From Clostridiaceae bacterium (GTDB lineage Bacteria; Bacillota; Clostridia; Saccharofermentanales; DTU023), in assembly GCA_012521015.1 (NCBI GenBank), contig JAAYNE010000036.1:4247-68246 (forward strand): a DNA stretch of 64,000 nucleotides, in the 5' to 3' direction. The translations under genes and the position numbers were made by a program. Under the pieces are notes generated by a model. The model saw nothing but the letters and a program-made list of their open reading frames with translations, was not told the origin of the DNA and searched no databases. Shown piece by piece: positions 6,871 to 62,248 of the stretch. How positions within the stretch are numbered: the stretch's first letter is position 1; the number at the start of each line of letters is the position of its first letter.

Positions 6871-7907
6871 TACAGGTATCCATTGATTTTTTAATAAAAG
6901 GGATTGGAGTTCTGTTTCTCATACTTACGCTTTTAAGCATTTATATGGTAGTGAATGGCGTTAAAGAAAACACCGCTTCTAGGAAAATAAAGCTATATAT
7001 ACAAAGTAAGCAAGATCTATGGTACCGATATTTCAAAAATGAAATTCCACTACCCTCGGAGCTTATACCCCATGACAATATTGAAATTCAAGCTGTAGAG
7101 GAAATTTTTCTTGCCTACGTACAAAATATATCTAATCCGATTGTTAAGGAAAAAATCCGGAAGTTTTCCAATCAATATTTAAGGCAGTATTATTTAAACC
7201 TTCTTTTGGGCAGGAGATGGAGTTTAAGAGTAAATGCTCTCTACAGGATTATTAGTTTTGGAATAGATTCCTTAGCCGATGAATGTAAGAAATTAGAAAA
7301 AAGACCCAAATTGTCCCCGGAGGAGCATTTTCAGTTGCTAATTATTCGTTCTATCTTCGATGAAGCAAATTTTTTAGAGGGATTTGCCAATTTGTCAATG
7401 AAACTCTCCGAATATGAATACAAAAAATTAATAATAGGTTTTAACTCGGAAATTCTTAAAAAACTGACTTCACAAGTGAGTGATTTTCCTTTAGAGTACC
7501 AATATTATTTTATTGATGTTTTAGGAATTAGCCGAAATTTTGACTTTTTGCCATTTTTGGAGAATAACCTTAGTCATGAAAACTCGGAAATTCGTATTCG
7601 CTCCTTAAAAGCCATTAATGAAATAGGCATCGTTGCTGACTTGGATAAGTATATGGTTTTCTTAAATTCCCCTATATGGGAAGAGCGTCTAATGTTGGCT
7701 AAGATTTTAGGAGCTTTTCCTTTAGAGCAGGTATTTTCGTATTTAGCACAATTGTTACAAGATGAAAATTGGTGGGTGCGTTTCCATGCCGCCCGAAGTA
7801 TTGGCAATAGTAAGTCTGGTAAGTCCTGGTTGGAGACATTCATTGCAACGGCTCAAGATCCGTATGCCATTGAGATGGCTCGCGAAGTATTGGGAAGAGA
7901 GTATTGA
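6861..7907 (+). CDS. Membrane-anchored HEAT-repeat protein
   Basis: Overlaps the preceding gene by 10 nt. It has one N-terminal hydrophobic helix (GIGVLFLILTLLSIYMVV). The C-terminal part has HEAT/PBS-lyase-type repeats (ENSEIRIRSLKAINEIG, DENWWVRFHAARSIGN). Confidence 0.75.
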   Translation: MVMIQVSIDFLIKGIGVLFLILTLLSIYMVVNGVKENTASRKIKLYIQSKQDLWYRYFKNEIPLPSELIPHDNIEIQAVEEIFLAYVQNISNPIVKEKIRKFSNQYLRQYYLNLLLGRRWSLRVNALYRIISFGIDSLADECKKLEKRPKLSPEEHFQLLIIRSIFDEANFLEGFANLSMKLSEYEYKKLIIGFNSEILKKLTSQVSDFPLEYQYYFIDVLGISRNFDFLPFLENNLSHENSEIRIRSLKAINEIGIVADLDKYMVFLNSPIWEERLMLAKILGAFPLEQVFSYLAQLLQDENWWVRFHAARSIGNSKSGKSWLETFIATAQDPYAIEMAREVLGREY

Positions 7908-13806: not shown

Positions 13807-13889
13807 TTCAAATTATTTAGTTTGAATCATGAGCATTTAAGGATTCAATCATTCAGGTTAACAACCGATAATTAATATATCTTAGTAAG

Positions 13890-13948
13890 AAAGACAACGC
13901 AGTAACTTAGTTAGAAGACTCCCAAAAAAGTAGCGTTGTCTTTTTTGT
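13890..13948 (+). terminator. Possible intrinsic terminator after the AIM24-family gene
   Basis: The stem is AAAGACAACGC / GCGTTGTCTTT and is followed by a T-run. The loop is unusually long (about 32 nt). Confidence 0.45.
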
Positions 13949-13976
13949 CTGTAAATTTATCGTAGTTAAATACCTT

Positions 13977-14222
13977 GCACACTTTTTAAAGTCGTACCAA
14001 TAAAAACCCGGATAAGCTTAAAAAGTGTGCTCATCTAACCCAGAACTGATGGGTTTGGACGAAAATATACACACTTTTTAAAGTTGTACCAATAAAAACC
14101 CGAATAAGCTTAAAAAGTGTGCTCATCTAACCCAGAACTGATGGGTTTGGACGAAAATATACACACTTTTTAAAGTTGTACCAATAAAAACTCGGATAAG
14201 CTTAAAAAGTGTGCTCATCTAA
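13977..14222. repeat. Tandem 92-bp repeat array, about 2.7 copies (hairpin-repeat family, reverse orientation)
   Basis: Units start at 13977, 14069 and 14161. Each contains GCACACTTTTTAA..(about 26 nt)..TTAAAAAGTGTGC (13-nt perfect arms) plus a small hairpin AACCCA-N7-TGGGTT. The reverse complement matches the core of the arrays at 19383 and 58581. Confidence 0.9.
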
Positions 14223-14353
14223 AGAATTATTCCTGCTTACGAAAAATATCAGCTAATGCATATGTAATTTTGTTTTACTTTAGTTTAATAATATTTGGTT
14301 ATATTTTAATAAAATTAAAGTCAAATTTAATATAATTGAAATAAAAATGAATA

Positions 14354-14382
14354 TTGACTTTAATAAAATTAAACTATAGTAT
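14354..14382 (+). promoter_or_regulatory. Putative sigma-A-type promoter
   Basis: TTGACT (14354-14359), a 17-nt spacer, then TAGTAT (14377-14382). It lies 27 nt upstream of the ATG at 14409. Confidence 0.4.
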
Positions 14383-14708: not shown

Positions 14709-14974
14709 TAACAATTTTATATCTGATCTTATTGGTTTCTTTTTTAGTTTTAGAAAAAATTGTTTCTGAGAAAGAACAATATCGAGGCATTTTGTTCGCA
14801 TTAGGAGTTGCGGTTTTAGGTATTCCATTCGGTACAAAATTTATTTGGTTAGCTTTTATTTTGATATGTGTCAATGTCGGAAGGTTTATTTATCAAGAGA
14901 TACAATTAATGAAGCTTACTTCATTAAAAGATCGCTTAGCGAATGTCTTGGAATTTCAAACCAGATTCCTATAA
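14705..14974 (+). CDS. Small hypothetical membrane protein
   Basis: ATGA overlap with the preceding gene. It has two to three hydrophobic segments and no recognisable family. Confidence 0.55.
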   Translation: MITILYLILLVSFLVLEKIVSEKEQYRGILFALGVAVLGIPFGTKFIWLAFILICVNVGRFIYQEIQLMKLTSLKDRLANVLEFQTRFL

Positions 14975-15103
14975 AACCCGGAATAATTGTTTGCTCGAGC
15001 TGAATTGTGGTAGAATATCAAAAAATATTTTGGTAAGTACTCTGCACGATTCTGTTAGCTAAAGATAAAAAATTCTTCAATAACTTAACAGAACGTTCTG
15101 TAC

Positions 15104-16699
15104 TTGGAGGAGGCTATTATTAAACCGGAATTACAAAATATTATCGCGATGTCCTTATATATGGCGATGGTCATCGGAATAGGTGTTTATTTCTTTAAGC
15201 GTTCTAATTCTTCATCAAAAGAATATTTTCTGGGAGGTCGTTCCATAGGACCTTACGTGACGGCAATGTCTGCTGAAGCCAGCGATATGTCAGGTTGGCT
15301 ATTGATGGGTTTACCCGGAGTAGCTTATTGGACGGGTCTTAGTTCTGCCTTTTGGACAGCATTCGGACTTGCTGTAGGAACTTATATCAATTGGAAAATA
15401 GTTGCCAAACCGCTTCGCGTTTATTCTCATGTAGCGAACGATTCAATTACTATACCGGATTTCTTTTCCAATCGATTCAAAGAAAAAGGCAAAAGAAAAC
15501 CAATTTTATTTTTTTCCGCTGTCTTTATTTTGGTGTTCTTTGTAGTATATGCTGCTTCTTGCTATGTGACTGTAGGGAAACTATTTTCCTCTTTGTTCGG
15601 AATGAGTTATATTTCAATGATGATTTTAGGAGCAATTTTCGTATTGGCTTACACCTTCATCGGAGGCTTTTTGGCTGAATCTGTTTCTGACTTTATGCAA
15701 GCTCTGGTAATGGTTTTTTCTTTAGTTGTGGTTCTAATAATCGGTATAAGTTATGCTGGCGGAATAAAAGAAATTATTAATAATCTAAAGCAATTTCCTG
15801 GTTTTCTGGAATTTTTTACATCTGCTAAGCCCAGTTTAAACGAAATGGGACAACAGATTCAAACGAGTGGTATTCCTCAGTTTGCTGAAGCAACTAAAGT
15901 AAGTTGGTTGGAAATTTCTACAAGTCTGGCTTGGGGATTGGGATATTTCGGAGTACCTCAAGTGTTAATTAAATTTATGGCAATAAGAGATGCAAAAGAA
16001 ATTAAAATTGCGAGAAGAGTTGCATCTATATGGGTTGTTATTTCATTAGCAGCTGCTGTATTCATAGGTTTAAACGGACGTGTTTTATTTCCCGCGGAAT
16101 TATTAACTCAGTCAGCTTCTGAAAAGATTTTTATTATCTCCGCCCAAAATATGATGCAGCCGTTTATCGCAGGAATTGTCATGGCTGGTATTTTAGCCGC
16201 AACAATTTCTTCTGCCGATTCCTATCTTTTAATCGGTGCATCTTCTGTAGCCAAAAATTTATACCAAGGCTTGTTTAAACAAGATGCTAAAGACAAAGAT
16301 GTGCTGAAAATAACGAGAATCACGTTGCTATTAATCACAACGATAGGTATATTGATCGCACTTGATGAAAATTCAGTTATATTCAAAATAGTTTCTTTTG
16401 CTTGGGCCGGCTTTGGAGCAACTTTTGGTCCATTAGTTCTTTTTTCTTTATTCTCGAGCAAAATTACGCAAAAGGGTGGTGTAGCAGGAATGATTGTTGG
16501 TGCTATGACAGTATTTGTTTGGGATCTCTTCTTGGTTAAATTTGGTGGCGTATTTGAGTTATTCTCATTGTTACCGGGTTTTCTGCTTTCCTCGATTGCG
16601 ATCTGGGTCGTTTCCTCAATCACATCTGTGGATAAAGAGATTAGTGAACAACATCAAGAGTATAAAAAGGAACTGGAGCAAATCACTCGAAAAGTATAG
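15104..16699 (+). CDS. putP: Sodium:proline symporter (SSF family)
   Basis: 531-aa polytopic protein with FLGGRSIGP near the N-terminus and overall PutP-like organisation. The start is uncertain: TTG at 15104 lies inside a GGAGGAGG string, and ATG at 15149 is an alternative. Confidence 0.85.
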   Translation: MEEAIIKPELQNIIAMSLYMAMVIGIGVYFFKRSNSSSKEYFLGGRSIGPYVTAMSAEASDMSGWLLMGLPGVAYWTGLSSAFWTAFGLAVGTYINWKIVAKPLRVYSHVANDSITIPDFFSNRFKEKGKRKPILFFSAVFILVFFVVYAASCYVTVGKLFSSLFGMSYISMMILGAIFVLAYTFIGGFLAESVSDFMQALVMVFSLVVVLIIGISYAGGIKEIINNLKQFPGFLEFFTSAKPSLNEMGQQIQTSGIPQFAEATKVSWLEISTSLAWGLGYFGVPQVLIKFMAIRDAKEIKIARRVASIWVVISLAAAVFIGLNGRVLFPAELLTQSASEKIFIISAQNMMQPFIAGIVMAGILAATISSADSYLLIGASSVAKNLYQGLFKQDAKDKDVLKITRITLLLITTIGILIALDENSVIFKIVSFAWAGFGATFGPLVLFSLFSSKITQKGGVAGMIVGAMTVFVWDLFLVKFGGVFELFSLLPGFLLSSIAIWVVSSITSVDKEISEQHQEYKKELEQITRKV

Positions 16700-16824
16700 A
16701 AATGGAGCTGCAAAAACCATTTAAAATCAATATTAATATGTTTGTCTTTATATCTTGTTGAATGTTAAAGATACCACGTAAAGAAATATTTCAAGTTAAG
16801 CCATAAAATTTAATTCATAATAAT

Positions 16825-16871
16825 AATAGCTGTCGGAAAACTTTATATTTAGACCGACAGCTATTGTTTTT
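16825..16871 (+). terminator. Intrinsic terminator after putP
   Basis: The stem is AATAGCTGTCGG / CCGACAGCTATT with a 17-nt loop, followed by GTTTTT. Confidence 0.7.
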
Positions 16872-16995
16872 GCTTGAAAGCAATCTTATTTATTAAATTA
16901 ATAAAACCAGATAATTGCCAAATTTATTTAAATTGTAAATTTTTGCAAGGAATTACCACATGAAATTATTTATGCAGAAAGACCAATAATGAACA

Positions 16996-18945
16996 TCAAT
17001 CTTTAGCAAAAGTGTCTACTTCATGTTGCAGCCGTTCGATTAACTCTGATTCACTCATTATGCCGAGGTCACCGGCTTTACGTTGGCGCACAGAATAGTT
17101 TTGATTTTCGATTTCCTGATCCCCCATGACTAACATATAGGGAATTTTTTCCAGTTGAGCATCACGGATTTTACGTCCGACTTTTTCATTTCTGCTATCG
17201 ACTTTTACACGGAAACCTGCAGCAGTTAAACGACTTGCAGCATCTTTAGCACCTTGGAAGTGTTTTTCAGCAATCGGCAAGATGACTATTTGTTCCGGTG
17301 CAACCCATAAGGGGAGAGCACCGGCATATTTTTCGATTAGTAAAGCAAGTGTTCTTTCATAACAACCGATTGAAGTTCTGTGAATGATGTGCGGGTGTTT
17401 TTTCTCACCGTTACTATCGATATAAACCATATCAAAACGTTCTGCCAGCTGAAAATCGATTTGGATTGTAATCAGTGTATCTTCTTTACCGAAGACATTT
17501 CTGATTTGAATATCTAATTTCGGACCATAAAAAGCGGCTTCACCGATGCCGGTTTCATACTCAATTCCGGTGGAATCCAGGATGGCTTGCATTGAGTCTT
17601 GAGCATTTTGCCATTCTTGCGGATCACCGATATATTTGTCTTTATTGTCCGGATCCCAGATTGAAAAACGATAGCTGACATCTTGATCTAAACCCAATGC
17701 TTTGAGCATGAAATTAGCTAAATCGAATGCCCCGAGGAACTCTTCTTTTAATTGCTCCGGAGTCACCATCAGATGTGCTTCGGAAATTGTGAATTGTCTC
17801 AGGCGGATTAAACCGTGCATTTCACCGGAGGATTCATTGCGGAAAAGCGTTGAAGTTTCATTCAAACGGATAGGCAAATCACGATAACTTCTGGTTTCAG
17901 CCTTATAAATCTGATATTGGAAAGGACAGGTCATCGGGCGCAAAGCATATGCTGTTTCGCCGTCTTTTTCTTCCGGATCCCCCATGATAAACATACCGTC
18001 ACGGTAATGATCCCAATGACCGGAAATCTTGAACAAATCGGATTTGGCAATCAGCGGTGTTTTGGTAATCTGATAACCGCGTTTTTGCTCTTCATCTTCA
18101 ACAAAACGTTCTAAAATTTGCAGAGTTTTTGCACCTTTGGGCATAAATAGGGGCAAGCCCTGACCGATAAAATCAATGGTTGTAAAGTAGCCAAGTTCAC
18201 GGCCTAATTTATTATGGTCACGTTTTCTGGCCTCTTCCATTTGAACCAAATATTCTTTTAATTGTTTTTTATCCGGAAAACTGATTCCGTAAATACGTTG
18301 CAGCATTTTGTTCTTTTCATCGCCCCGCCAATATGCACCTGAAACTTGCAGCAACTTGAAAGCTTTAACCATACCGGTATTCATTAAGTGCGGACCGGCA
18401 CATAAATCAACAAAATCGCCCTGCTTATAAAATGAAATTGTTTCATCAGGCGGCAAATCTTCAATTAATTCGACTTTATAGTCTTCATTAATATCTTTTG
18501 CCCATTGCAAAGCATCGTCACGCGACAGAGTATAGAATTCAAGCGGCAGATTTTCCTTTACGATATTCTGCATTTCTTTTTCGATTTTTTCTAAATCGTC
18601 ATTCGTGAAATTTTGTTCCAGATCAATATCATAATAAAAACCGTTATCAATTGCCGGACCGATTGCCAACATCGCATCAGGATATAAACGCTTGATCGCT
18701 TGCGCCATGATATGTGAAGTTGTATGCCAAAAAGCCTTTTTCCCTGCTTTTTGCTCAAATTTCAATAATTCCAATGTGTCACCGTCATTGAGTTTGGTTC
18801 TGAGATCAACATCAACTCCATTCACTTTTGCCAGACAGACATTTCTTGCAAGATTTTCACTGATAGCCGTCGCCGCATCGAATGCAGAAGAATTCTTTTC
18901 CAATTGTAACGGCGAACCGTCTTTTAATTTAATTTCTATACTCAT
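16996..18945 (-). CDS. thrS: Threonine--tRNA ligase
   Basis: 649 aa with an N-terminal TGS-like domain and the editing motif HTTSHIMAQA. Class II core strings are present (FRNESSGEMHGLIRLRQFTISEAH). A Thr T-box leader lies upstream. Confidence 0.97.
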   Translation of the reverse strand: MSIEIKLKDGSPLQLEKNSSAFDAATAISENLARNVCLAKVNGVDVDLRTKLNDGDTLELLKFEQKAGKKAFWHTTSHIMAQAIKRLYPDAMLAIGPAIDNGFYYDIDLEQNFTNDDLEKIEKEMQNIVKENLPLEFYTLSRDDALQWAKDINEDYKVELIEDLPPDETISFYKQGDFVDLCAGPHLMNTGMVKAFKLLQVSGAYWRGDEKNKMLQRIYGISFPDKKQLKEYLVQMEEARKRDHNKLGRELGYFTTIDFIGQGLPLFMPKGAKTLQILERFVEDEEQKRGYQITKTPLIAKSDLFKISGHWDHYRDGMFIMGDPEEKDGETAYALRPMTCPFQYQIYKAETRSYRDLPIRLNETSTLFRNESSGEMHGLIRLRQFTISEAHLMVTPEQLKEEFLGAFDLANFMLKALGLDQDVSYRFSIWDPDNKDKYIGDPQEWQNAQDSMQAILDSTGIEYETGIGEAAFYGPKLDIQIRNVFGKEDTLITIQIDFQLAERFDMVYIDSNGEKKHPHIIHRTSIGCYERTLALLIEKYAGALPLWVAPEQIVILPIAEKHFQGAKDAASRLTAAGFRVKVDSRNEKVGRKIRDAQLEKIPYMLVMGDQEIENQNYSVRQRKAGDLGIMSESELIERLQHEVDTFAKD

Positions 18946-19057
18946 TTCTTTCTCCTATTACCTAACATTTATTATATAAAAAGTTTATCCTAAAAATTTT
19001 TATCTTATAATTTTGTCCTAAACGAATTATTCTCAAATTACTCCAAAAATATATTGC

Positions 19058-19290
19058 CTTAAAACAAAAAACACCATTGAGCCTTGCCCAAGGGTGCATA
19101 ACACGTTTCCACCTTGTATTTAACTTAATTCTATCCTTGACGCAGATTCACGGTACTACTTAGTCTTAGTAAAAAGAGTTCGTAGACGGCTCCGGAGTGG
19201 TTTTCATTGAGTATCAGATAAAAAGATTTGCAACCACGATCTTTTCTCTCTTAAACTGAAATTCTCAACTACTCGTTCCTTCAATGCCTT
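19058..19290 (-). promoter_or_regulatory. T-box leader (Thr specifier ACC) controlling thrS
   Basis: Read on the minus strand. The stem I base is TTGAAGGAACGAGTA, followed by an AGAGAG element. The specifier loop is GAAAACCAC, with ACC at 19199-19201. The T-box sequence is AAGGTGGAAACGTG. The terminator hairpin CACCCTTG-N9-CAATGGTG is followed by TTTTTTGTTTT. Confidence 0.75.
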
Positions 19291-19318
19291 TATGTAATTG
19301 ATTTTCTGATTAAATTAT

Positions 19319-19382: not shown

Positions 19383-19636
19383 TGCTTGCACACATTTTAA
19401 GTTTATTCAGCAATCCGTCGGTACAACCTTAAATAATGTACAGATTCTTCAATAAAGCTTCGTTTTTGTGCAGTGCTTGCACACTTTTTAAGCTTATCCA
19501 GCAATCCGTCGGTACAACCTTAAATAATGTACAGATTCTTCAATAAAGCTTCGTTTTTGTGCAGTGCTTGCACACATTTTAAGTTTATTCAGTAATCCGT
19601 CGGTACAACCTTAAATAATGTGCAGATTCTTCAATT
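19383..19636. repeat. Tandem 91-bp repeat array, about 2.8 copies (hairpin-repeat family)
   Basis: Units start at 19383, 19474 and 19565. The core is TTGCACAC(A/T)TTTTAAG(T/C)TTAT-N13-GGTACAACCTTAAATAATGT(A/G)C. Confidence 0.9.
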
Positions 19637-26148: not shown

Positions 26149-26315
26149 TCGATTTCCTTTGCCTAAAATATTAATCCGTAGATTCTTAAGATTTTAAAAT
26201 TCTTAATGTTTTTAAAATCGGAGAAATCTTGATATATTAAAAATCTGTAAATTCTTAATACTTTAATGTTTCGTATTTTGATATTTCAGTGTATTCTGAT
26301 TGAATGATAACTAAA

Positions 26316-26353
26316 ATAAAGCTTGAAAAGCAAATATAAAGCTTGAAAAGCAA
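26316..26353. repeat. Two direct copies of an 18-mer (period 20 bp) immediately upstream of the arginase start
   Basis: ATAAAGCTTGAAAAGCAA occurs at 26316-26333 and again at 26336-26353, with a 2-nt spacer. The repeat ends 12 nt before the ATG at 26366. Confidence 0.85.
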
Positions 26354-26365
26354 TAGAGAGCGAAT

Positions 26366-27232
26366 ATGAAAACAATTTATTTTGTGAATAATTATTCCGG
26401 CGTACATGTTCCGGGATTGAAAGATAGTGTATATGCATTACGTGAAAAACTGAATTCAAACGGTATAGTCTTGGAAGAAAAAGATTTTGCAACAGATAGT
26501 TTAGCGACAGAGAATTTTGCGGCAGATAAATTTAAAACAATGAAAAATTATGCTGCTATTTTTGATATCTGTGCTCGTTGTAAAACATATGCTTGTGAAA
26601 TTTTCGCACAAGGGAATACGCCGGTAATGATTGCCGGCGATCACAGCATAGGCATGGCCAGTGTAGCTGCTACAGCAGCCAAATTTAATAATTTGGGTTT
26701 GGTCTGGGTTGATGCCCATTCCGATATTAATACTGACACAACCAGTACTACGGGGAATATTCATGGAATGCCGATTGCGTCATTGCTCGGTCTGGGCTCA
26801 CAAGAATTAACAAAGCTTTCAGGAAATGGACCTTGTCTTAAACCGGAGAATATTCTATATCTCGGTTTGCGAGATTTAGATCCGGCCGAAACGGAATTTT
26901 TAAATAATTTACCGACCAAAGCATATTACTATGATGAAATTGCGGTACGAGGTTTGAGTAATGTGCTGACGGAAATCAAAACAACTTGGAAAATAGAAAA
27001 CATTCATCTCAGTTTTGATTTTGATTCGATGAATCCTCAATTTATGCCCGGAGTTTCAGTTCCGGCTCCCGGCGGTTTTACCGAAGATGATGCATTGACA
27101 ATACTTGATTTCTTCAAAAATCACTTCAAGTGTCGTTCTTTTGATTTTGTTGAATATAATAGGACAAACGATATTGCTGATCAATCATTACATACTTGTC
27201 TTAAACTTATAAAATCTATCTTAGATAACTAA
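26366..27232 (+). CDS. Arginase/agmatinase-family ureohydrolase (arginase-like)
   Basis: Mn-binding signatures are GDHSIG, VDAHSDINT, LRDLDPAE and SFDFDS. Confidence 0.85.
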   Translation: MKTIYFVNNYSGVHVPGLKDSVYALREKLNSNGIVLEEKDFATDSLATENFAADKFKTMKNYAAIFDICARCKTYACEIFAQGNTPVMIAGDHSIGMASVAATAAKFNNLGLVWVDAHSDINTDTTSTTGNIHGMPIASLLGLGSQELTKLSGNGPCLKPENILYLGLRDLDPAETEFLNNLPTKAYYYDEIAVRGLSNVLTEIKTTWKIENIHLSFDFDSMNPQFMPGVSVPAPGGFTEDDALTILDFFKNHFKCRSFDFVEYNRTNDIADQSLHTCLKLIKSILDN

Positions 27233-32475: not shown

Positions 32476-35400
32476 ATGAAACCGATTAGACTCTGCTTAG
32501 CAGCATTTGGACCTTTTGCAGAAGAAATTGAAATTGATTTTCAACCGTATCAAAATGGTTTGTTTTTAATTTCCGGTGATACGGGTTCCGGCAAAACGAC
32601 AATTTTTGATGCTTTTATGTTTGCTCTCTACGGGGACACGACCCAGACTGAACGTGATGCAGGGCAAATGCGCAGTGATTTTGCTTCTCCTGCTACAAAG
32701 ACTTTTGTTGAATTAGAATTTCAGGTTAAAGATAAAATTTATAAAATAAGACGTGAACCTTCTTACTTACGTCCGAAAATGCGTGGTGAAGGCATAGCAA
32801 CTAATCCGAGCCGGGTAGAAATGACTTTACCGAATGGAAAGGTTTTAACTTTACAAAAGGAAGTCAAGGATAAAGTAGAATTACTTCTAGGATTAGATGC
32901 GGATCAATTCAAACAAACCGGGCTTTTACCGCAAGGTGATTTTAAACAACTATTATCTTCAGATCAACCACAACGGGAACAAATTTTTCGTAAAATTTTC
33001 AATACGAAGAAAATTATCGAATTTCAAGATTTGCTAAAACAAGAAACAAAAGATATAGCTCAAGCCAGAGATTATAAACAAAGAGACTTGGAACAAGCGA
33101 TTCATCATATTGAATGGTTTGCTGATATGGAAAACTCGGAATCCCCGGAGCTGATGGAAAAATCGATATTAATTGAGAATTCGGGTTTAATAGATAATTT
33201 GGGATTAATGAAAAATCAGAGACTGGAATTAAATGAGTTAAAAAAATTAGCAGAGTATATAAACCATGGTGAGATGAGCTTTTTAAGCCAGTTCTATCAA
33301 CAATTCCAAAGCTACATTGTAGATTTACGAACTTATCAAAATCAACTTGATTTAAAGAATCAAGGGCTTAGTACAACCAGAAATAAAAAACAGGAAGCAT
33401 ATCAAAAAGCACTTGAATTAAGCCGGATTTTTAGTGAATTGGCTCTGAAACAACAAGAATTGACTTCTTTGGAAGCGGCACTGACTGAAATGCAAGCCAG
33501 AAAAAAATCCTTTGAAATTTTTAAGTTTGTGGCATTAAATATCTCCGGACTTTACAGTCAATGGAAAAACAATCAGCAATCTTTGGCGGGCAAAGAGAGT
33601 TTACTTGAAAAAAATTTGCATGAATTGAACCAAGTTACCAACGATTTAACAGAGGCTGAACAGCAATATCTGGATTGGCAAAGCAAGGCGGCAGAAATAG
33701 AAGCTGCAACAATTTCTCTCAACAAATTAAAAGAAGAATTGTCGGTTTATGAGGAATATGAAAAAATCAAGCTTGATTTGAAATGTTTTGATAATGAGCA
33801 AGCGGAACTGATTAAACAAAAAGGGGAATTGGAACAAACAAAACTGAGTTTAGTTAAACAAAAACAAAAGTTGGAGCAACAAATTACGAATTTGAAGCAG
33901 GTTGAAATACAACATAACAAATTACTAATTGAACAGAATAACTTGACCGCTGCTTATGATAAGAGCGCAAGCAATTTGGCAAGTTGGCGATTTCTACGTA
34001 ATCAAGCAGCAGAAATAAAAAGTTTAACGATTCAATATGAAGATGTTGCTGAAAAGTTTAAGCAAGCAGAACTGGATCTTACTTCATATCGTGCATTGGA
34101 AAAACAACAAGCAGCTGCTTTTCTGGCAAAAGATTTAACACAAGGAACTCCCTGTCCGGTTTGCGGACAAACCCATCATCTAAAATTAGCTGAATTTGAT
34201 CAAAATTTTTCTGAAGAAATTCTTGAGGCGAAAGAGCAATGTTTTAATCAACTGCAAAATCAAACTACGGAACTGAAAATTGAACTCGGCGGTCTCAAAA
34301 CCGGTCACGCTCAACTTTTGACAGCATTAGAAAAAAGTTTTGTTAATATGAATCAAAGACCAAATCAAAACACAAATCAAGAATCAAACTTTGATTTGGC
34401 ATCTGATGTTAAATTTGCAGAATTTCAATCGGCAACAGATGAGTTATTCAATTATATTTCGGAAATCTCGCAAACAATTACGACACAAACAGAACAACTA
34501 AAAGCAATTCCTCAATTGCAGGAAACTCTTTTGAAAAATGAAGTTCAAACATCAAAAAACTTGACGGATTTACAAGAAATTGAGGATAGATTAAAAACCA
34601 ATTTATTAGACCGGACCAAGTTTAGTGCAAAATTGGAGAACTTGCAACAAAACTTACAATATGAAAACCTGCATCAGGCGGAGCAAGCTTTTGACAGGTT
34701 GAATTCCGAATATAATGTGAAAATCAAAGCACGCCAAGATGTCATGGACCATTATAATCAACTCTTACGTAAACAGAGCAGCTTTGATTCAGCAATCGAA
34801 CAGATCAAAAGCGATATTGATGTTTTGAAGATACGACAAACTGAATTGATAGCAGAAATTACGGAAAAATCTACTCAAGTCGGGATAAAGTTTTCGGATA
34901 TCAGTCAATATGTTTGGTTACCTGATCAGCTAAATCAAGAAGAAACCGCAATCAATACATATTTCACAGAATTACATAATTTGCGTCAAATTGTAAATGA
35001 TTTAACCGGGAAAATCCAAGATCAAGCTAAACCTGATTTAGAACAAATCGGTGCTGAATTACAACAAGTTGAACAGATTTTGCAAGAGTTAAGGACAAAA
35101 ATGACATCGATTGGTCTTGTCATTGAAAAAAACGTTTCCTTAGTTGAGCAATTCGCTGTAGATATGCAAGAATATCAAGAGCTTGCTAAAAAAGCTGCTG
35201 AGATTTCATACTTATCCGGACTGGCTAACGGTTTAACAGGTGCAGGTAGAAGAACATTTGAGGCATTTGTTCAGTCATATTATTTCCAGAGAATGCTTGA
35301 AGCGAGTAACATGCGTTTGGCGACGATGAGTCACGGAAGATACTATTTGGATCGTAAAGAAGAAGTATCTGACAGACGTAAAAGAAGCGGTCTTGAATTT

Positions 35401-36411: not shown

Positions 36412-36785
36412 ATAAATCTTCCTTGGATTTTATCTTGTTTATTTTGCTTTACCCCTTTTTCTCAATATTGTATTGAATATTGATATCAAATCATCAAATG
36501 ATCTAAAATCCCGATCTCAAACTTTATACTTCTGAAAACACTCTTCTAAGTAACACTATAAGTTTACAAAATCCTTCACGTACAAGCAAATATTATTCTA
36601 AATGAGATTTTAAATAATAACGAGATTTTAAATAATAAAGTTAAAAGATTTTTAGAGGAATTGGTTAACTTAAGTTGTGGAGACAAGTTGGAAAAAGATT
36701 AATAGTTATAAGCTATAATAAAAATCAAATAGGTTTAGAAATACGTATAAATAGATAGAATGTATAGAAATGAGAGGAAGTTTAT

Positions 36786-45113: not shown

Positions 45114-46064
45114 CTAGTCATCATATTCTGAGTCATTATACTCTGAGTCGTCATAGTTTGAGTCATCATAGTCAGTATCATCTGCTGTCGGTGCAGCTGT
45201 TGGGGCTGCAGTCGGAGCATAATCGGTTTCATCATAGTCAGTGTCATCTACTGTTGGAGCAGCAGTTGGAGCAGCTGTTGGGGCTGCAGTCGGAGCATAA
45301 TCGGTTTCATCATAATCAGTGTCATCTACTGTTGGAGCAGTAGTCGGAGCAGCTGTTGGGGCTGCAGTCGGGGCTGCTGTCGGATCTGCTGTTGTTACGT
45401 TATCGGTGTCACCATGGTCCGTCTTATCTTTAGTAGTTGGTACGGTAATGTCTATAGAGTTACTGTCTTCTTTATTTTCTTTATTTTCTATACTATTATT
45501 ATTGTCTTTACTTTTGTCTTTTTCGTTATTATTGTCTTTACTCTTGTCTTTTTCGTTATTATTGTCGTTATTATTGTCTTTATTATTGTCTTTACTATCA
45601 GTACCGAGTTCTACATCAACATTTAATTTGTCAACTTTTTCTTCAACTGCTTTTCCAATATTAGCAATAAAATCTTCGCTTGGTAAGAAAGAACCCTCTT
45701 TTAATTCTAAAGTTATGGTTTTTCCTGTGCCTTTAGCATCTTCTATAAAATATCCGGCATTATTGATTTTATCAACTAATTCTTGAAGAACGACCGTTGA
45801 ATCTTTGCCAATATAGTTATCATAATCTTTTACAATTTTTGTACCATCTTGGTTTGAACCACGTACATCGGTTACCTTACCGTCTTTATCGTATTCGATT
45901 TCGATTTGCGGATTTACAGAAAGTACGATAACACCTCTTTCAGCATCCATTTTTTCCATTTTGGTATCTGATTGAGGATTTGATTTTGCTTTACCTGCAC
46001 AACTTGTGAGGAAAAGTGCCAATACCAGTGAAAATATTGCTAACAAGCTTAATTTTTTGTTCAT
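45114..46064 (-). CDS. Lipoprotein with a highly acidic, repeat-rich C-terminal tail
   Basis: Signal peptide plus lipobox (LFLTSC). The folded N-terminal domain is followed by DNNNEKDKSK repeats. APTAAPTAAPT..DDTDYDETDY repeats come next. Confidence 0.8.
   Translation of the reverse strand: MNKKLSLLAIFSLVLALFLTSCAGKAKSNPQSDTKMEKMDAERGVIVLSVNPQIEIEYDKDGKVTDVRGSNQDGTKIVKDYDNYIGKDSTVVLQELVDKINNAGYFIEDAKGTGKTITLELKEGSFLPSEDFIANIGKAVEEKVDKLNVDVELGTDSKDNNKDNNNDNNNEKDKSKDNNNEKDKSKDNNNSIENKENKEDSNSIDITVPTTKDKTDHGDTDNVTTADPTAAPTAAPTAAPTTAPTVDDTDYDETDYAPTAAPTAAPTAAPTVDDTDYDETDYAPTAAPTAAPTADDTDYDDSNYDDSEYNDSEYDD
45168..45386. repeat. In-frame 78-bp tandem repeats (about 2.8 copies) inside the lipoprotein gene
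   Basis: The string GCAGCTGTTGGGGCTGCAGTCGGAGCATAATCGGTTTCATCAT recurs at 45193 and 45271; at 45349 only its first ~20 nt recur before divergence. A separate 30-bp repeat (2 copies) lies at 45501-45560. Confidence 0.85.
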
Positions 46065-46364: not shown

Positions 46365-46572
46365 GCAATTTATTTGAATTAAAATCTTGTAGTAAATCCA
46401 GCTTAAACTGAAATTCAAATTTGTGATAAGTTTACTCTCTTACCGAACTGATATTGCACATTTTTTATACTTATTCATGAATCTATTAATATGAGTTTTC
46501 TATCATTGATAAATTTTTTATCACAAAGATCATTATATTTTTTGTATAATAAATTCATTAAGGAGGAATCCA

Positions 46573-55222: not shown

Positions 55223-55403
55223 TTGCAAAAATTTATAACAACACTCCATAATTACTATCTATTGACAACTGTAGAAAATGCTTCTAATGAATTACTCTTA
55301 AATGGATTATTTCAATAAATTCTTTTTTAATGTTTTTAACAATTATTTAGTTTTTAATGATTTTAATAAATTCTTTTAATAAACGATTTTTACATGAAAA
55401 AGC

Positions 55404-57201: not shown

Positions 57202-58548
57202 ATGGCGAAAAAAGTTGTTCTTGTGGGTGCTAATCATGCCGGTACAGCGGCGGCAAAACAAATCTTAGGTGCAAAGAAAGATATCGAATTGACAATATTT
57301 GACAGTAATTCAAATATTAGTTTTCTCGGTTGCGGTATGGCAATTTGGATAGGCGGACAAATCAGTACCGGCGACGGTCTTTTCTATTCCAATAAGGAGG
57401 AACTGGAATCATTAGGTGCAATAGTAAATATGGAAACCGAAGTGACACAGATTGATTATGACACTAAAATTGTTCATTATCGCGATGTTTCAGGCAAAAC
57501 AGGTGAAGTTCCATATGATGACTTGATTCTGGCTACCGGCTCTTCTCCGATCAAACCGAATATTCCCGGAATTGATCTCAAGTATATTCAAAAAGCCAAG
57601 CTTTATCAGGATGCAGCATTAGCCGTTGAGCAAATTAAAAATGATCCGAGTATTAAAAAAGTAGGAGTTGTCGGTGCAGGCTATATCGGTGCCGAACTTG
57701 CTGAAGCATATCGTCGTGTAGGCAAAGAAGTTGTTTTAATTGATGTTGTGGATCGTATCTTGAGTACCCATTTTGATCGAGAATTTACCGATGTAATGGA
57801 AGAACGCCTTAAAGAAAACGGTATTAAGTTGGCTTTAGGTGAAAAAGTCACTGCTTTTGAGGGTTCAGAGCGTGTCGAGAGGATTGTCACTGATAAAAAT
57901 AGTTATGATGTTGATTTGGTAATGCTTTGTATCGGTTTTCGTCCTAATAGTCAGCTTGGCGGTGACAGACTTAAGTTATTCAAAAATGGAGCTTTTTTAG
58001 TAAATAAAAAACAAGAAACATCAGAAAAAGGAGTTTATGCTATCGGTGACTGTGCTACCGTCTATGACAATTCAATTCAAGATACGAATTATATTGCTCT
58101 GGCAACCAATGCTGTACGCTCAGGAATTGTTGCCGGCTTCAATGTAGCAGGTGTCGATATTGAATCGATCGGTGTACAAGGCTCTTCGGCTCTGAGTCTT
58201 TACGGATTGAAAATGATTTCGACTGGTTTAACTCTTGAGAGAGCAGAATCAAACGGTATCAAAGCCAAAACAACAAATTATGAAGATTGGCAGAAACCTG
58301 AATTTATGAATGAAGCAGGTCCGAATAACAAAGTCAAAATCAGAATAATTTATCGTGAAGACAATCATGAAATAATCGGAGCCCAGCTGATTTCTGATTA
58401 TGACATGTCCGGTATTATCAATATGTTCTCTTTAGCGATCCAAGAACGTGTTACAATCGAACGCGTCGGATTGTTAGATATATTTTTTATGCCGCATTTC
58501 AACAAACCATATAATTATATTACTATGGCAGCTCTTTCAGCAGAATAG
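57202..58548 (+). CDS. nox: FAD-dependent NADH oxidase / CoA-disulfide-reductase-family oxidoreductase
   Basis: I prefer the ATG at 57202 (GGAGG upstream). Motifs seen: VLVGANHAGTAAA, the redox Cys context SFLGCGMA, and a second Rossmann motif VVGAGYIGAE. Confidence 0.85.
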   Translation: MAKKVVLVGANHAGTAAAKQILGAKKDIELTIFDSNSNISFLGCGMAIWIGGQISTGDGLFYSNKEELESLGAIVNMETEVTQIDYDTKIVHYRDVSGKTGEVPYDDLILATGSSPIKPNIPGIDLKYIQKAKLYQDAALAVEQIKNDPSIKKVGVVGAGYIGAELAEAYRRVGKEVVLIDVVDRILSTHFDREFTDVMEERLKENGIKLALGEKVTAFEGSERVERIVTDKNSYDVDLVMLCIGFRPNSQLGGDRLKLFKNGAFLVNKKQETSEKGVYAIGDCATVYDNSIQDTNYIALATNAVRSGIVAGFNVAGVDIESIGVQGSSALSLYGLKMISTGLTLERAESNGIKAKTTNYEDWQKPEFMNEAGPNNKVKIRIIYREDNHEIIGAQLISDYDMSGIINMFSLAIQERVTIERVGLLDIFFMPHFNKPYNYITMAALSAE

Positions 58549-58580
58549 GAAATGTCCGGCTATCCAATAAATCCAATAAA

Positions 58581-59129
58581 AACCGGCTTTCCCGGGTTGG
58601 ACTTGCACACTTTTTAAACTTATGCAGGCATTTAGCGGTACAAGCTTAAATAGTGTGCAAGTTCTTTAAGAAAACCGGCTTTCCCGGGTTGAACTTGCAC
58701 ACTTTTCAAGCTTATGCAGGCATTTAGTGGTACAAACTTAAATAGTGTGCAAGTTCTTTAAGAAAACCGGCTTTCCCGAGTTGGACTTGCACACTTTTCG
58801 AGCTTATGCAGGCATTTAGCGGTACAAGCTTAAATAGTGTGCAAGTTCTTTAAGAAAACCGACTTTCCCGGGTTGGACTTGCACACTTTTTAAACTTATG
58901 CAGGTATTTAGCGGTACAAGCTTAAATAGTGTGCAAGTTCTTTAAGAAAACCGGCTTTCCCGGGTTGGACTTGCACACTTTTCAAGCTTATGCAGGCATT
59001 TAGCGGTACAAACTTAAATAGTGTGCAAGTTCTTTAAGAAAACCGGCTTTCCTGCGTTGAATTTGCACACTTTTCAAGCTTATGCAGGCATTTAGTGGTA
59101 CAAGCTTAAATAGTGTGCAAGTTCTTTAG
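58581..59129. repeat. Tandem 92-bp repeat array, 6 copies (hairpin-repeat family)
   Basis: Units start at 58581, 58673, 58765, 58857, 58949 and 59041. Each unit is AACCGGCTTTCCCGGGTT + GGACTTGCACACTTTT(T/C)(A/G)A(A/G)CTTATGCAGG(C/T)ATTTAG(C/T)GGTACAA(G/A)CTTAAATAGTGTGCAAGTTCTTTAAGAA. Confidence 0.95.
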
Positions 59130-59243
59130 CAAAATGGGTTTTCTGTTTTGAAATTTACTGGGCACGAAATTTTGAGACAAATTATAATTCCGATTGAAAA
59201 TTCTAACTAATTATTTTAATAATTTGCGATGAAAATCAAAGAA

Positions 59244-60731
59244 TCAGATTTGAATGATAAAATCTGCTAAAGAATTGATCAAATCTTGGCGATGAGTGGC
59301 AAGTAGAATTGTTCTGTTGCCTTTTTCTTTGTCAAGCAGCTTTAAACATAGTTTTTCTGATTCATAATCCATTTCACGAAATACTTCATCAAGAATTATG
59401 ATGTTGGAGTTTACAGCTAAAGCACGAATTAGAGAGGATTTTTGTTTCATGCCTCCGGAAAAAGTATGAATTTTTTTGGAGAGGGGTAAATCTAACTCCA
59501 TTATAATTGGTTCCCAATAGTTGAGTAACATTTTGGCTTCAGAACTGTTTTTAGTATAACCGGATGCTAACAAAAGGTTTTCTGAGAGAGTTAAATTTTC
59601 TAATAATCTTATATCTTGGAAAGCATAAGAAAAAACTGGGTTTAAACTAAAATCAATTGTACCGGAATCTTGTTGTTCAAGACCGGTTAAAATCCGGAAA
59701 AATGTTGTTTTACCTTGTCCGGATGGTCCGATGATTGCTGTAGATAAACCTTTTGGGATTTCACAATTTAAATTGTTTAATACTAATTGTTGTTTATAAG
59801 ATTTGTTAAGATTTTTAATTGATACGGTATTGGGGATGTTCTTTTGTTGTTCATCTTTAACTTTGGGGAAATGACGACTTTGCGATTGTTGTTGCTCATT
59901 TTCAATTTTTGAAAAACAATTGTCCTGTAAATGTTGTTTTGCATCTTCAACTAACGGTAATAGATTTTTATTATTAAAAAAGCGAATTATTGTTTTGACT
60001 AGATAATTCATTAACAGTGAAAGAATGAGAATAACGGTTAAGTGTGCCAGAACTTGTGAACTTTCAAGTCGAATTTTTGCATTATATAAGTTAGTGCCGA
60101 TTCGCGAAAATGGTTGTGCCATAATTTCACCCGTGATCCCTGCTTTCCAGGCTAACCCTGAAGTATAATCAAGTGAAGGTAAAGTTTCTTTGATAAGTGC
60201 CGGTAAGTAAATTGTGCGATAAGTATGGCGTTTTTTAAAACGGAAAACAAAAGCCATTTCTAAGAGGTTTGTTGCGGCTCCGCTCAGACCGGATTTTGTT
60301 GAATAGTAAATTGGTGGAATTATTGCTATTAAGATTAGGGCAAAGGGCAAAACAGAGGTTTTTATCCAAATCATCAAAATGATTGTTATAGCTGCCAAAG
60401 GCGAACTTTTCAATATATAAATAACCGGGTTGATGAATGTCTCAGACCAATTCATGAAAAACGCCAAATGTCCCAGCAAGATACCAAGGATCAAACCAAT
60501 GAAAAAACCGCCGACAATCGAGATTAAAGAGCTGATAATGCCTAACCGAAAAGATTTTTCAAAGATCAATTTACCGAGGGCTTGCAGCACTGTCAGCGGA
60601 TGGGGCAAGAGAATTTGATTATTTACCACTAAAGATAAAAATTGCCATAAGAACAAGAAAAAAATAACCCCGATCAAGATCGAAAATTTTCCGGTTTGCT
60701 TTACTACAGGTTTGTATTGAGGTTGTTTCAT
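59244..60731 (-). CDS. Fused ABC importer permease + ATPase (NitT/TauT-type)
   Basis: The N-terminal ~270 aa are a polytopic permease. The C-terminal NBD has Walker A GPSGQGKTT, signature FSGGMKQK and Walker B IIILDE. Confidence 0.82.
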   Translation of the reverse strand: MKQPQYKPVVKQTGKFSILIGVIFFLFLWQFLSLVVNNQILLPHPLTVLQALGKLIFEKSFRLGIISSLISIVGGFFIGLILGILLGHLAFFMNWSETFINPVIYILKSSPLAAITIILMIWIKTSVLPFALILIAIIPPIYYSTKSGLSGAATNLLEMAFVFRFKKRHTYRTIYLPALIKETLPSLDYTSGLAWKAGITGEIMAQPFSRIGTNLYNAKIRLESSQVLAHLTVILILSLLMNYLVKTIIRFFNNKNLLPLVEDAKQHLQDNCFSKIENEQQQSQSRHFPKVKDEQQKNIPNTVSIKNLNKSYKQQLVLNNLNCEIPKGLSTAIIGPSGQGKTTFFRILTGLEQQDSGTIDFSLNPVFSYAFQDIRLLENLTLSENLLLASGYTKNSSEAKMLLNYWEPIIMELDLPLSKKIHTFSGGMKQKSSLIRALAVNSNIIILDEVFREMDYESEKLCLKLLDKEKGNRTILLATHRQDLINSLADFIIQI

Positions 60732-60917
60732 AGTGTTAATTTCTCATATAAATATATCTAAACTAAATATCGTATCGCTTCGATATTAGTTTAAATAGTG
60801 CTGATATTTTTGTTGCTTATTTGCATTATTTGAATTATCAATATACACCTTAATTAAGGGTGCATAATCTAAATGAAATGCCGCTAATCCGATGACAATG
60901 TATCATCAAATTACATC

Positions 60918-62006
60918 TTAATTATTCTTATAATAAAAGTCATCTGCCGGCAATTTCTCACCGATTAATTCAGGATTATTAGTTGCCAGAATTTCTAAAT
61001 ATGGTGCTAAGGTATCCTGTAATTCTTGATCTGTAATTAGCGAAATTCCGATATTAGAGATGGCTTTTTCAGCAATTGCTGCACCGATAATTCCTTGTTC
61101 TTCAATAATTTTGGCAGCTTCAGTCGGATTCTGATTTACCCATTCAGCAGATGATTTATAATCTTCTAAGAACTTATCAAACCAGAGGGAGTTTTGTTCA
61201 ACGAATTCTTTGCGGATAACTAAAACGCCGGTTACTATTTTTGAGTTTTCACCGAAATATTCTTGCCAAAGTTGTTCGAGATCAAGTTGAGTTTTGATTT
61301 GTGAGTTTTTCATTGTTACCGAACTGAGAAAAGGTTCTTGCAATAAAGCTATAGCACCTTCTTCTGCTTGTAGTTTAGCGGCTACTTCAGTTGCTTCCGG
61401 CAAGTAGTTAATTGTTATGTTTGTACCAATATTCAGACCGGCTTTTGCCAGAAGATTATTCAAAATAACTTCCGGTGTAGAACCTTTACCGGTTGCATAA
61501 ACGGATTTACCCTCAAGATCATTAAGGGAATTGAGTTCAACATTATTTGTTGCAAAATGTAAAACGTTCAGCACATTAATTGCGGCAACCTGAATTTTTC
61601 CTTCACTTTTGTTATAAACTGTTGCGGCAAGGTTTGCCGGTATGCAAGCAAGATCAATTTCACCTTTGATTAATCCGGTGGCAACTTGATCCGGCATTGT
61701 CAAAATTTCATAGCTGAGATTTTGATTAATACTTTCTGTTATCTTTTCAGACGTGTATTGAGCAAGTCCTATTGCTGTGGGACCCTTCATCGCAACCAAA
61801 GTAGCTGATTCAGCAAGAGCAGGAACTTCAGTATCTTTTTTAACAGATTTGCTTGAATCGGTAGTTTCTTTTAGTTCCACAGATTCATTTGATCTGGTAG
61901 AATCTTTTAGTTCACTTGATTCAGCCGATTGATTTGCAGTTCGGCAAGCTACAAGATTGATAGTAAGAAAGGTTGTAAGAATGATTATTATAATTTTATA
62001 TTTCAT
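60918..62006 (-). CDS. ABC transporter substrate-binding lipoprotein (NMT1/THI5-like, NitT/TauT family)
   Basis: I prefer the ATG at 62006 (GAGG 5 nt upstream). Lipobox is NLVAC. The periplasmic-binding-protein-like body lies adjacent to the permease/ATPase gene. Confidence 0.75.
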   Translation of the reverse strand: MKYKIIIIILTTFLTINLVACRTANQSAESSELKDSTRSNESVELKETTDSSKSVKKDTEVPALAESATLVAMKGPTAIGLAQYTSEKITESINQNLSYEILTMPDQVATGLIKGEIDLACIPANLAATVYNKSEGKIQVAAINVLNVLHFATNNVELNSLNDLEGKSVYATGKGSTPEVILNNLLAKAGLNIGTNITINYLPEATEVAAKLQAEEGAIALLQEPFLSSVTMKNSQIKTQLDLEQLWQEYFGENSKIVTGVLVIRKEFVEQNSLWFDKFLEDYKSSAEWVNQNPTEAAKIIEEQGIIGAAIAEKAISNIGISLITDQELQDTLAPYLEILATNNPELIGEKLPADDFYYKNN

Positions 62007-62248
62007 AATGACCTCACGATTCACGCATCTGAAATTAGCTTCAGATAGGTTGAGAACAAGTGTATTTTTATTATAATACTATTTGCTGAATGAGAGAGTG
62101 ATCTGAATCACGTTTAACAATATTATTTCGAATTCATGGAGTCGATAACGATTATCGCAACAAATTTCCGTTTTGTTAATTATCGATTAAACTCCTAACA
62201 ATCGTTTAAACATTTTGTTTATAGAAATTAGAAAATAATAAAAACAAA

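Follow-up and report, generated by a model that had tools for sequence, protein, structure and literature searches.

What are the six closely similar units that lie head to tail between two convergent genes at positions 58,581 to 59,129 of a contig from an uncultured clostridium, and what keeps them there? The stretch analysed here (the window) comprises 64,000 nucleotides from Clostridiaceae bacterium (GTDB lineage Bacteria; Bacillota; Clostridia; Saccharofermentanales; DTU023; GenBank assembly GCA_012521015.1, contig JAAYNE010000036.1, positions 4,247 to 68,246 of the forward strand). An earlier inspection of the letters alone, hereafter the sequence-only reading, had singled out these units as the main array of a palindromic repeat family with three loci in the window. 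The answer that we favour, and to which we give about an even chance, is that they belong to a lineage-restricted, non-coding and non-autonomous intergenic repeat of the BIME-2/BOX-like kind, which is amplified locally and probably acts as a terminator or 3' hairpin. Homogeneity within each locus, duplication of blocks of units and a palindrome conserved as sequence, mismatches included, bear the marks of a repeat that is maintained and amplified at the level of DNA.

Three arrays of one family

Tandem Repeats Finder places array 3, the locus in question, at 58579-59128 (period 92, 6.0 copies, 94% matches, 0 indels), array 1 at 13978-14222 (period 92, 2.7 copies, 97% matches) and array 2 at 19383-19635 (period 91, 2.8 copies, 95% matches). 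With the addition of nhmmer matches to the cores and, for array 3, of linker matches, the window holds 12 units: (i) six of 92 bp in array 3 (58577-59129, plus strand), each made of a linker and a 58-bp palindromic core, the cores being at 58602-58659, 58694-58751, 58786-58843, 58878-58935, 58970-59027 and 59062-59119; (ii) three of 92 bp in array 1 (13976-14216, minus strand; cores 13976-14032, 14068-14124 and 14160-14216); and (iii) three of 91 bp in array 2 (19385-19625, plus strand; cores 19385-19442, 19476-19533 and 19567-19625). The core pattern, with up to 3 mismatches allowed, matches the window 22 times, against a mean of 0.21 in shuffled sequence, and 0 of 100 shuffles reach 22. Both the single family at three loci and the six-copy 92-bp array between convergent genes, as first proposed, are thus borne out. 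No open reading frame (ORF) of at least 40 amino acids overlaps array 3, and the absence of an associated transposase in the window, noted from the start, also holds.

Array 3 is followed by a degenerate, partial seventh unit (59130-59180, plus strand), recognised on inspection as a linker-like GTTCTTTAGCAAAATGGGTTTTCTGTTTTGAAATT and a decayed left arm, and not matched by nhmmer. Elsewhere in the window, a left-arm-like fragment (TTGCACATTTTTTATACTTATTC; 46455-46486, plus strand) lies between a tRNA-Arg gene and an ArsR-family gene; it fits the pattern with 2 mismatches, its nhmmer score is not significant (8.0 bits, E = 0.39), and it is possibly the left half of a decayed unit.

Many short-read contigs end within the arrays. 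Array 3 is the same base for base in L018, one ENA assembly of independent origin that extends across it; several others carry arrays 1 and 2 unchanged (L013 and L039-L041 for array 1, L044 for array 2). Since the same sequence is found in independent assemblies, and since orthologous three-unit arrays stand on a 1-Mb contig of a related metagenome-assembled genome (MAG), the arrays are genuine and no assembly artefacts. Among the independent assemblies that span the arrays we saw no variation in copy number; these assemblies differ by only 0-1 single-nucleotide polymorphisms and therefore probably represent one strain, or nearly clonal ones.

Anatomy and folding of the unit

We collected 59 units, with 52 distinct sequences, from the window and related loci. 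The unit of about 92 bp consists of a 58-bp imperfect palindrome, GCACACTTTTTAAGnTTAT-N13-GGTACAAnCTTAAATAGTGTGC, and a T/A-rich linker of about 34 bp with the consensus GTTCTTnnAnAAAACCGGCTTTTCnnGGnTGnnC. In a fuller form the core reads (T)TGCACACTTTTTAAGnTTAT, 13 nt, GGTACAAnCTTAAATAGTGTGCA(A), position i pairing with position 59-i. The 58-nt core has no gap in any of about 50 copies; in these the length of the loop is constant and that of the linker varies by 1 nt, despite an identity of about 50% in both, and nearly all arrays keep a period of 91-92 bp, in agreement with the conserved unit length first described. Judged by their linkers, units run head to tail in every array.

The stem carries three fixed or nearly fixed imperfections: 10/49 is a T.T mismatch in 39 of 50 copies, 20/39 an A.C mismatch in 33 of 50, and 17/42 is unpaired in 40 of 50 through many base combinations. 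In the array 3 unit the long hairpin forms on both strands (fold z -5.5 and -6.7). The units of array 2, folded as DNA, reach z values of only -1.1 and -1.45 because their outer right arm has decayed, with ATGTAC in place of GTGTGC. A second, short GC-rich hairpin had been assigned to each unit from the sequence. It is clear in array 3 and in some subfamilies, and weak or absent in many others, so that it does not describe the family as a whole; its register differs among subfamilies and most linkers fold no better than shuffles, which led us to discard covariation in this hairpin. Within the linker, conservation is highest in the T-run that follows the long hairpin and in the A-run that precedes the small one. 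On the sense strand the long hairpin is followed by UUCUUU, and on the antisense strand the small hairpin by UUUUCUU.

One subfamily (L005, L016/L012) has an inverted tip: its central 28 nt, comprising the tip and the inner stem, are the reverse complement of the canonical sequence (identity with the canonical consensus 0.68-0.82 in reverse complement and 0.32-0.39 forward), while its linkers stay canonical. This form is still amplified and is present at two loci. Several other motifs were looked for by eye in the unit, namely integron attC sites, the single-strand-origin CS-6 motif, Rex, CodY and IHF sites and sigma-70 promoters; each was confined to one array or too weak and was discarded.

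The palindrome is conserved as sequence, not as an RNA fold

A palindrome of this length may be kept for its structure as RNA or for its sequence as DNA. In an ungapped alignment of 39 distinct units, scored over the 24-pair stem against 500 column shuffles, no covariation was found: 76.8% of the cells pair, compared with 79.1% in the shuffles, two-sided pair changes occur in 7 cells against 19.6, and the observed covariation score is equalled or exceeded in every one of the 500 shuffles. Variation in the stem breaks pairs rather than compensating, in line with what the swaps in array 3 had suggested by eye. Conservation is concentrated in the arms: between arrays, mean identity reaches 0.91 in the left arm and 0.83 in the right, as compared with 0.50 in the loop and 0.51 in the linker, and array 2 retains the arm motifs despite barely folding. 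The lack of compensatory change, the three fixed mismatches and the contrast between arms at 83-91% and loop and linker at about 50% lead us to conclude that the palindrome is conserved as primary sequence and not as an RNA fold. Together with the inverted tip, this also sides with the earlier suggestion of a protein-binding DNA site: the conserved stem sequence fits recognition of DNA by a protein better than it fits an RNA structure.

A strand bias exists. The strand complementary to TTAT..GGTACAA folds better (33 units versus 18, Wilcoxon p = 2e-4), and on the strand that carries TTAT..GGTACAA A.C oppositions exceed G.U by 86 to 35; much of this bias traces to the single fixed A.C at 20/39. 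The AAACTT/AAGCTT swaps of array 3 turn a Watson-Crick pair into A.C on the plus strand and G.U on the minus strand, and amount to only three or four events. The inverted tip speaks against a strand-specific RNA role of the tip, since inversion would turn the tip of the RNA into its complement.

The family is restricted to a few related genomes

A strict form of the core pattern was scanned against one genome per species for 185,579 species. Nine stretches matched, all of them in MAGs from anaerobic digesters (biogas reactors): a Saccharofermentanales bacterium (JBMNJV01), two 'Clostridiaceae' MAGs and one contig binned as Bacteroidales, which is actually contiguous with a Clostridiaceae contig. 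The two contigs, the Bacteroidales-binned one (L008, bin AS23ysBPME_368) and the Clostridiaceae one (L006, AS23ysBPME_19), have identical units of one array in common, at the end of one and the start of the other; the array broke the assembly, and L008 is probably mis-binned. A relaxed pattern found eight JGI metagenome contigs, one of them identical to array 1 and one (L010), in a Bacteroidetes-like contig, a chance match that we do not count as a member of the family. The relaxed pattern has no match in viral contigs, and nothing similar was found in phage and plasmid records. Searched against Rfam at the gathering score, the window yields only tRNA; in E-value mode, array 3 gives only miRNA-hairpin noise far below threshold, array 1 nothing, and the region of array 2 only a separate T-box leader, so that in neither mode do the arrays match an Rfam family.

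JBMNJV01 is a relative of the window organism (thrS 92.6% identical in DNA) and carries the strict pattern at four places on two contigs of 1.02 and 0.44 Mb. It is syntenic with the window over 13-23 kb and has kept both arrays there with three units each (L009), the orthologue of array 2 being 88% identical. The sodium:solute symporter gene that lies between arrays 1 and 2 in the window (15104-16699) is missing from this syntenic region (window 14967-16998 versus L009:1937-2111). In the collections searched, the family is confined to a few related Saccharofermentanales/"Clostridiaceae" genomes and, as far as these databases and a literature search show, it is previously undescribed.

Growth, turnover, loss and interruption of the arrays

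The arrays grow by duplication of multi-unit blocks. Units 1-3 and 4-6 of array 3 are a duplicated 276-bp block: self-identity is 95.7% at a shift of 276 bp, as against 93.7% at 92 bp and 93.2% at 184 bp, with 2 differences between units 1 and 4 and 2 between units 2 and 5. The units of L017 follow an ABAB pattern, and the most diverged units are the terminal ones. Linkers are specific to the locus and homogeneous within it, as had been observed in the window, with 94-97% identity within arrays against a linker identity of 0.51 between them. The orthologues of array 1 are 97% homogeneous in each genome, whereas the region is only about 77% identical between the two genomes, in which thrS agrees at 92.6%, and this points to concerted evolution or turnover.

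The arrays are also gained, lost and interrupted by insertion sequences (IS). Array 3 is missing from a relative with a 93% identical nox protein (L022), and likewise from one at 85%. At the former locus, a 94-bp spacer that contains a canonical bidirectional terminator separates nox from a diacylglycerol-kinase-like gene. L022 (4348-4441, versus window 58549-62248) also lacks two ABC genes of the window, encoding a permease-ATPase (59244-60731) and a substrate-binding protein (60918-62024); as the array and both genes are absent together, array 3 borders an indel. An alignment of L022 with the window, meant to define insertion borders, loses all similarity directly past the stop codon of nox and shows no duplication. 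In four contigs from different samples with a nox protein 85% identical (L024:4600-4736 and the ends of L025-L027) the sequence breaks off exactly 389 nt past nox, within a tandem repeat of another kind (about 81 bp; AGCAAAAATGCAAGAGATCCAAAATCYTGTTTGGAAAACTT), which is likewise an assembly-breaking repeat of the group.

JBMNJV01 has a second, paralogous copy of array 1 together with its DUF2089 gene (L002), which points to a segmental duplication of both. An IS3-family element (orfA with HTH_Tnp_1, orfB with HTH_21 and rve) sits in a linker of this paralogous array (L002:2978-4313, JBMNJV010000001.1), and what had seemed a solo copy in L002 is actually part of the array split by this element; in an alignment with the window this part of L002 proved non-homologous, and it gives no comparison of a filled with an empty site. 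In L007, an IS110-family element of about 1.6 kb (5319-6917, JBMNJV010000006.1) splits the third unit in its right arm. It has the Pfam domains DEDD_Tnp_IS110 and Transposase_20, subterminal repeats GTGACCCC...GGGGTCAC and a 350-bp non-coding region 3' of the gene, and its junctions read ACAACCT, the element and CTTAAATAG, with CT on both sides. Beyond a T/A-rich heptamer, the non-coding region has no guide-like match of at least 7 nt to the repeat. We rejected the idea that the IS110 family generally targets this repeat: the closest multi-copy relative of the element (57% identity) goes to a different target, in a different organism, and the insertion in L007 is therefore an anecdote only.

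These genomes carry many other tandem repeats. The window contains further short (15-28 bp) tandem repeats, mostly intergenic, at 14308-14354, 18961-19031, 26182-26526, 33168-33209, 36604-36638 and 55324-55376, and others are found at L001:3662-3760, L005 (about 2950-3030), L016 (about 1850-1900) and L007:7120-7230, several of them adjoining palindromic arrays. From these, the genomes of the group seem generally prone to tandem duplication. Overlapping tandem repeats with periods of 12, 15, 24, 30 and 78 at 45116-45581 lie inside a lipoprotein-like ORF (45114-46064, minus strand) and are repetitive, low-complexity coding sequence.

Genomic context

All copies are intergenic, at a dozen or so unrelated sites in a few related genomes, and most stand shortly behind a stop codon or between convergent genes. 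The neighbouring genes are unrelated housekeeping genes and include thrS, tyrS, infC, ftsH, fur, nox, ABC and FtsX permeases, an amylase, LytR, AIM24, DUF2089 and others, and no common functional theme was found among them. When the 200-nt flanks of the arrays were compared all against all, similarity appeared only between orthologous or paralogous loci, leaving no shared flanking module. At 11 independent sites that could be classified, the adjoining genes are co-directional at 7, convergent at 4 and divergent at 0. Of the arrays that start within 60 nt after a stop codon, 6 of 7 are in the sense orientation as defined by the asymmetric linker, and antisense arrays lie farther from the gene. 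With numbers this low, the counts of context and orientation are no more than suggestive.

Array 3 begins about 30 nt downstream of the stop codon (58548) of nox, which encodes a protein of the H2O-forming NADH oxidase family (57202-58548, plus strand; Pfam Pyr_redox_2 and Pyr_redox_dim on the identical product). Folding of 58549-58680 reveals no separate terminator between this stop codon and the array. The convergent gene, an ABC permease-ATPase fusion (59244-60731, minus strand; Pfam BPD_transp_1 and ABC_tran), has no stable hairpin in its 3' flank up to the array (59130-59243, minus strand, z = +1.16), and array 3 is the sole strong hairpin between the two genes. The other two arrays are placed differently. 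Array 1 is antisense to an AIM24-family gene and lies downstream of the canonical intrinsic terminator of that gene (13886-13947, plus strand; a 15-bp stem followed by UUUUUUG, -19 kcal/mol, z -3.5). Array 2 stands directly upstream of the thrS promoter, to judge from promoter-like sites at 19364-19319 on the minus strand, ahead of the T-box leader of that gene (19087-19293, minus strand; Rfam RF00230, 78.1 bits, E = 6.6e-17), a leader that a default Rfam scan misses because its score is below the gathering score of 93. Position, orientation and the presence of a terminator in the array-less orthologue make a secondary role of the repeat as a bidirectional terminator or 3' hairpin likely; the support for the terminator or insulator modules of the sequence-only reading is of this circumstantial kind.

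Origin and function of the repeat

How could such a family arise and persist? In the reading that we favour, growth and homogenisation of the arrays would both be DNA-level processes, whether through slippage, through unequal recombination or through template switching at the palindrome. A protein acting in trans would recognise the conserved arms and spread the element, for which REP sequences and their Y1 transposase, which needs a stem mismatch, offer a precedent. Copies would persist mainly at the 3' ends of genes, where the long hairpin with its UUCUUU in sense, and the small hairpin with its UUUUCUU in antisense, may act as a terminator or as a hairpin protecting the 3' end.

Several observations weigh against this picture. 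(i) Mobility is deduced from distribution only, since no target-site duplication is recognisable and no clean empty site was found. (ii) Apart from the two unrelated IS, no gene for a transposase or another candidate recognition protein was found in the window or beside the other loci, and no Y1 (HUH) transposase gene in the window or the related loci compared, the whole genomes of the lineage not having been searched. (iii) Copy number per genome looks low, with few arrays as compared with hundreds for REP, and units run head to tail where those of BIMEs alternate. (iv) For a terminator role, the consensus terminator scan gives 0 sites in arrays 1 and 3, the U-tract after the hairpin is modest, and both array 1 and array 2 lie antisense to the genes beside them. 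(v) A loop and a linker without indels in about 50 copies at 50% divergence are not explained by a purely selfish or neutral element. This last point invites a more specific, putative proposal, which we consider somewhat unlikely: the arrays would be recognition platforms for a palindrome-specific protein, either a Clostridial counterpart of the REP-RAYT pair or a chromosome-structuring factor. The geometry of protein binding would explain both the absence of indels in loop and linker and the three fixed stem mismatches.

Other explanations draw on the same facts. Host-selected, bidirectional terminator or insulator modules, whose amplification only tunes efficiency and which never spread selfishly, would account for arrays directly after stop codons or between convergent genes, for the mostly sense orientation of the stop-proximal ones, for the canonical bidirectional terminator that stands in place of array 3 in the array-less orthologue, array 3 itself being the only hairpin between nox and the ABC gene, and for the preference in linker conservation for the T-run and the A-run beside the hairpins. 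A terminator, however, can do without a conserved primary sequence, fixed mismatches or a fixed length of loop, whereas here the arms agree at 83-91% from locus to locus; array 1 is antisense and behind a good canonical terminator, the units of array 2 barely fold, the consensus scan is negative, and homologous units at unrelated loci need a means of spread. We regard this account as unlikely. Just as unlikely, in our view, are arrays of double-stranded DNA sites for a palindrome-recognising host protein with a chromosome-structuring, partition-like or regulatory role, the 92-bp spacing reflecting the geometry of binding. Arms conserved as sequence with no covariation, the tolerated inversion of the tip, as expected for a site read on duplex DNA, and a 13-nt loop free of indels with a linker that varies by 1 nt only, across about 50 copies and about 50% divergence, all agree with it, and tandem palindrome arrays are known as centromere sites, such as sopC of F with its 12 units of 43 bp. 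Against it count the gain and loss of arrays between close relatives, their interruption by IS and their unrelated loci, the lack of a candidate protein gene that is consistently adjacent, and a 20-bp arm repeated at spacings of 37 and 55 bp, which fits no known site architecture.

A neutral variable-number tandem repeat (VNTR) without activity, in which the arms look conserved owing to recent common descent and to gene conversion from arm to arm, is in our estimate quite improbable. Satellite-like growth with higher-order blocks and diverged terminal units, the many other intergenic tandem repeats of these genomes and the dispensability of the arrays speak for it; recency, though, cannot explain arms at 83-91% beside a loop and linker at about 50% in the same units across genomes, conversion between arms would erase the three fixed mismatches, and copy-number variation was unseen among independent assemblies, even if these are probably nearly clonal. 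We think it very improbable that the array is one of structured small RNAs or a processed precursor, each 92-nt unit being one RNA module. This idea, put forward in the sequence-only reading, could point to the strong hairpin of array 3 and to the strand that folds better, with the excess of A.C over G.U on its complement, but the bias comes mostly from one fixed position, and covariation is wholly absent. Moreover, one subfamily has an inverted tip that would make the RNA its complement, arrays face their neighbouring genes in either orientation, the units of array 2 do not fold, and neither a conserved promoter nor an Rfam match exists.

The family also has its practical side. The arrays break short-read assemblies and cause mis-binning, and they could serve as strain markers, while the units are candidate natural bidirectional terminators for low-GC anaerobes. 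Should a dedicated binding or mobilising protein exist, the family would offer a small, tractable system for the spread and domestication of repeats; if that protein is palindrome-specific, this would be a new host-repeat system and go beyond another selfish repeat.

Comparison with known repeat systems

The family is not a CRISPR, as first stated: unique spacers are absent, the entire 92-bp unit repeats, and linkers are alike within an array. Integron attC sites carry R''/R' boxes (RYYYAAC ... GTTRRRY) at the ends of the palindrome, which here are CTTGCACAC/GTGTGCAAG; a GTTRRRY is present in the linkers of a single subfamily only and the matching R'' box is absent, which led us to reject this candidate. 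Type III toxin-antitoxin (ToxI-like) repeats, which stand directly upstream of a toxN-like endoribonuclease gene, were rejected too, no such gene being among the flanking genes. The arms can be read as the terminal inverted repeats of a miniature inverted-repeat transposable element; a duplication was not recognised, and both comparisons of filled with empty sites are uninformative. With intrinsic bidirectional terminators the unit shares a hairpin and a U-rich run in both directions and a place after stop codons or between convergent genes, and it differs from them in its long, mismatched stem, 13-nt loop, conserved sequence, tandem units and failure in the consensus scan. In mycobacteria, MIRUs contain short ORFs that are coupled to the adjacent genes, and their copy number differs from strain to strain. 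They too are intergenic tandem units of 40-100 bp at several loci; here, however, neither 92 nor 91 is a multiple of 3, no ORF is present, and copy-number variation was unseen in assemblies that are probably of one strain. Of the MIRU-like VNTR offered by the sequence-only reading, generic local amplification is all that stands.

BOX elements come closer. The pneumococcal BOX, boxA-(boxB)n-boxC, is a Firmicute intergenic hairpin with an inner module in a variable number of tandem copies; it codes for no protein, lacks a transposase and is believed to influence the transcripts beside it. Our family is likewise an intergenic, hairpin-forming, non-coding Firmicute element with a tandem module and no transposase of its own, although it has no conserved terminal modules like boxA and boxC, its module measures 92 bp and not 45 bp, and the sequences show no similarity.

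The fullest likeness is with REP sequences and their clusters. BIME-2 elements are tandem copies whose linkers differ by locus and are well conserved within one locus (PMC3333891), and the REP-associated Y1 transposase TnpA_REP requires a stem mismatch (PMC3333891); REP sequences are, in addition, known targets of IS110-family elements (PMC1525189, PMC11208160, PMC11187229). Here, too, extragenic imperfect palindromes form tandem clusters with a period of roughly 100 bp, the linkers are locus-specific (94-97% identity within arrays, 0.51 between them), the stem has fixed mismatches (10/49, 20/39, 17/42), copies lie at the 3' ends of genes, and an IS110-family insertion occurs, in one case. The differences are these: (i) the palindrome measures 58 nt, compared with 20-40 nt in REP; (ii) REP and BIMEs are defined by a conserved GTAG tetranucleotide 5' of the hairpin foot (PMC3333891), whereas the foot here is (C)TTGCACAC...GTGTGCAA(G) and no unit has GTAG/CTAC beside it; (iii) units are head to tail and not alternating REP/iREP, with only the hairpin tip inverted in one subfamily; (iv) there are few arrays per genome, as far as scanned, against hundreds of copies (more than about 100 per genome); (v) no RAYT gene was seen in the window or the related loci compared; and (vi) the host is a low-GC Clostridia lineage, whereas REP clusters are from E. 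coli and other Proteobacteria. On account of the 58-nt palindrome, the missing GTAG, the head-to-tail units and the apparently low copy number, the repeat is not REP proper and is rather of the REP/BIME/BOX kind. Its closest known counterpart is the BIME-2 type of REP cluster; BOX elements come next. Much work has been done on REP/BIME-like elements in Proteobacteria and little is known of them in Clostridia, and the family, with its long palindrome of fixed length, head-to-tail arrays, inverted-tip subfamily and apparently low copy number as features of its own, would extend them to an uncultured lineage of biogas reactors.

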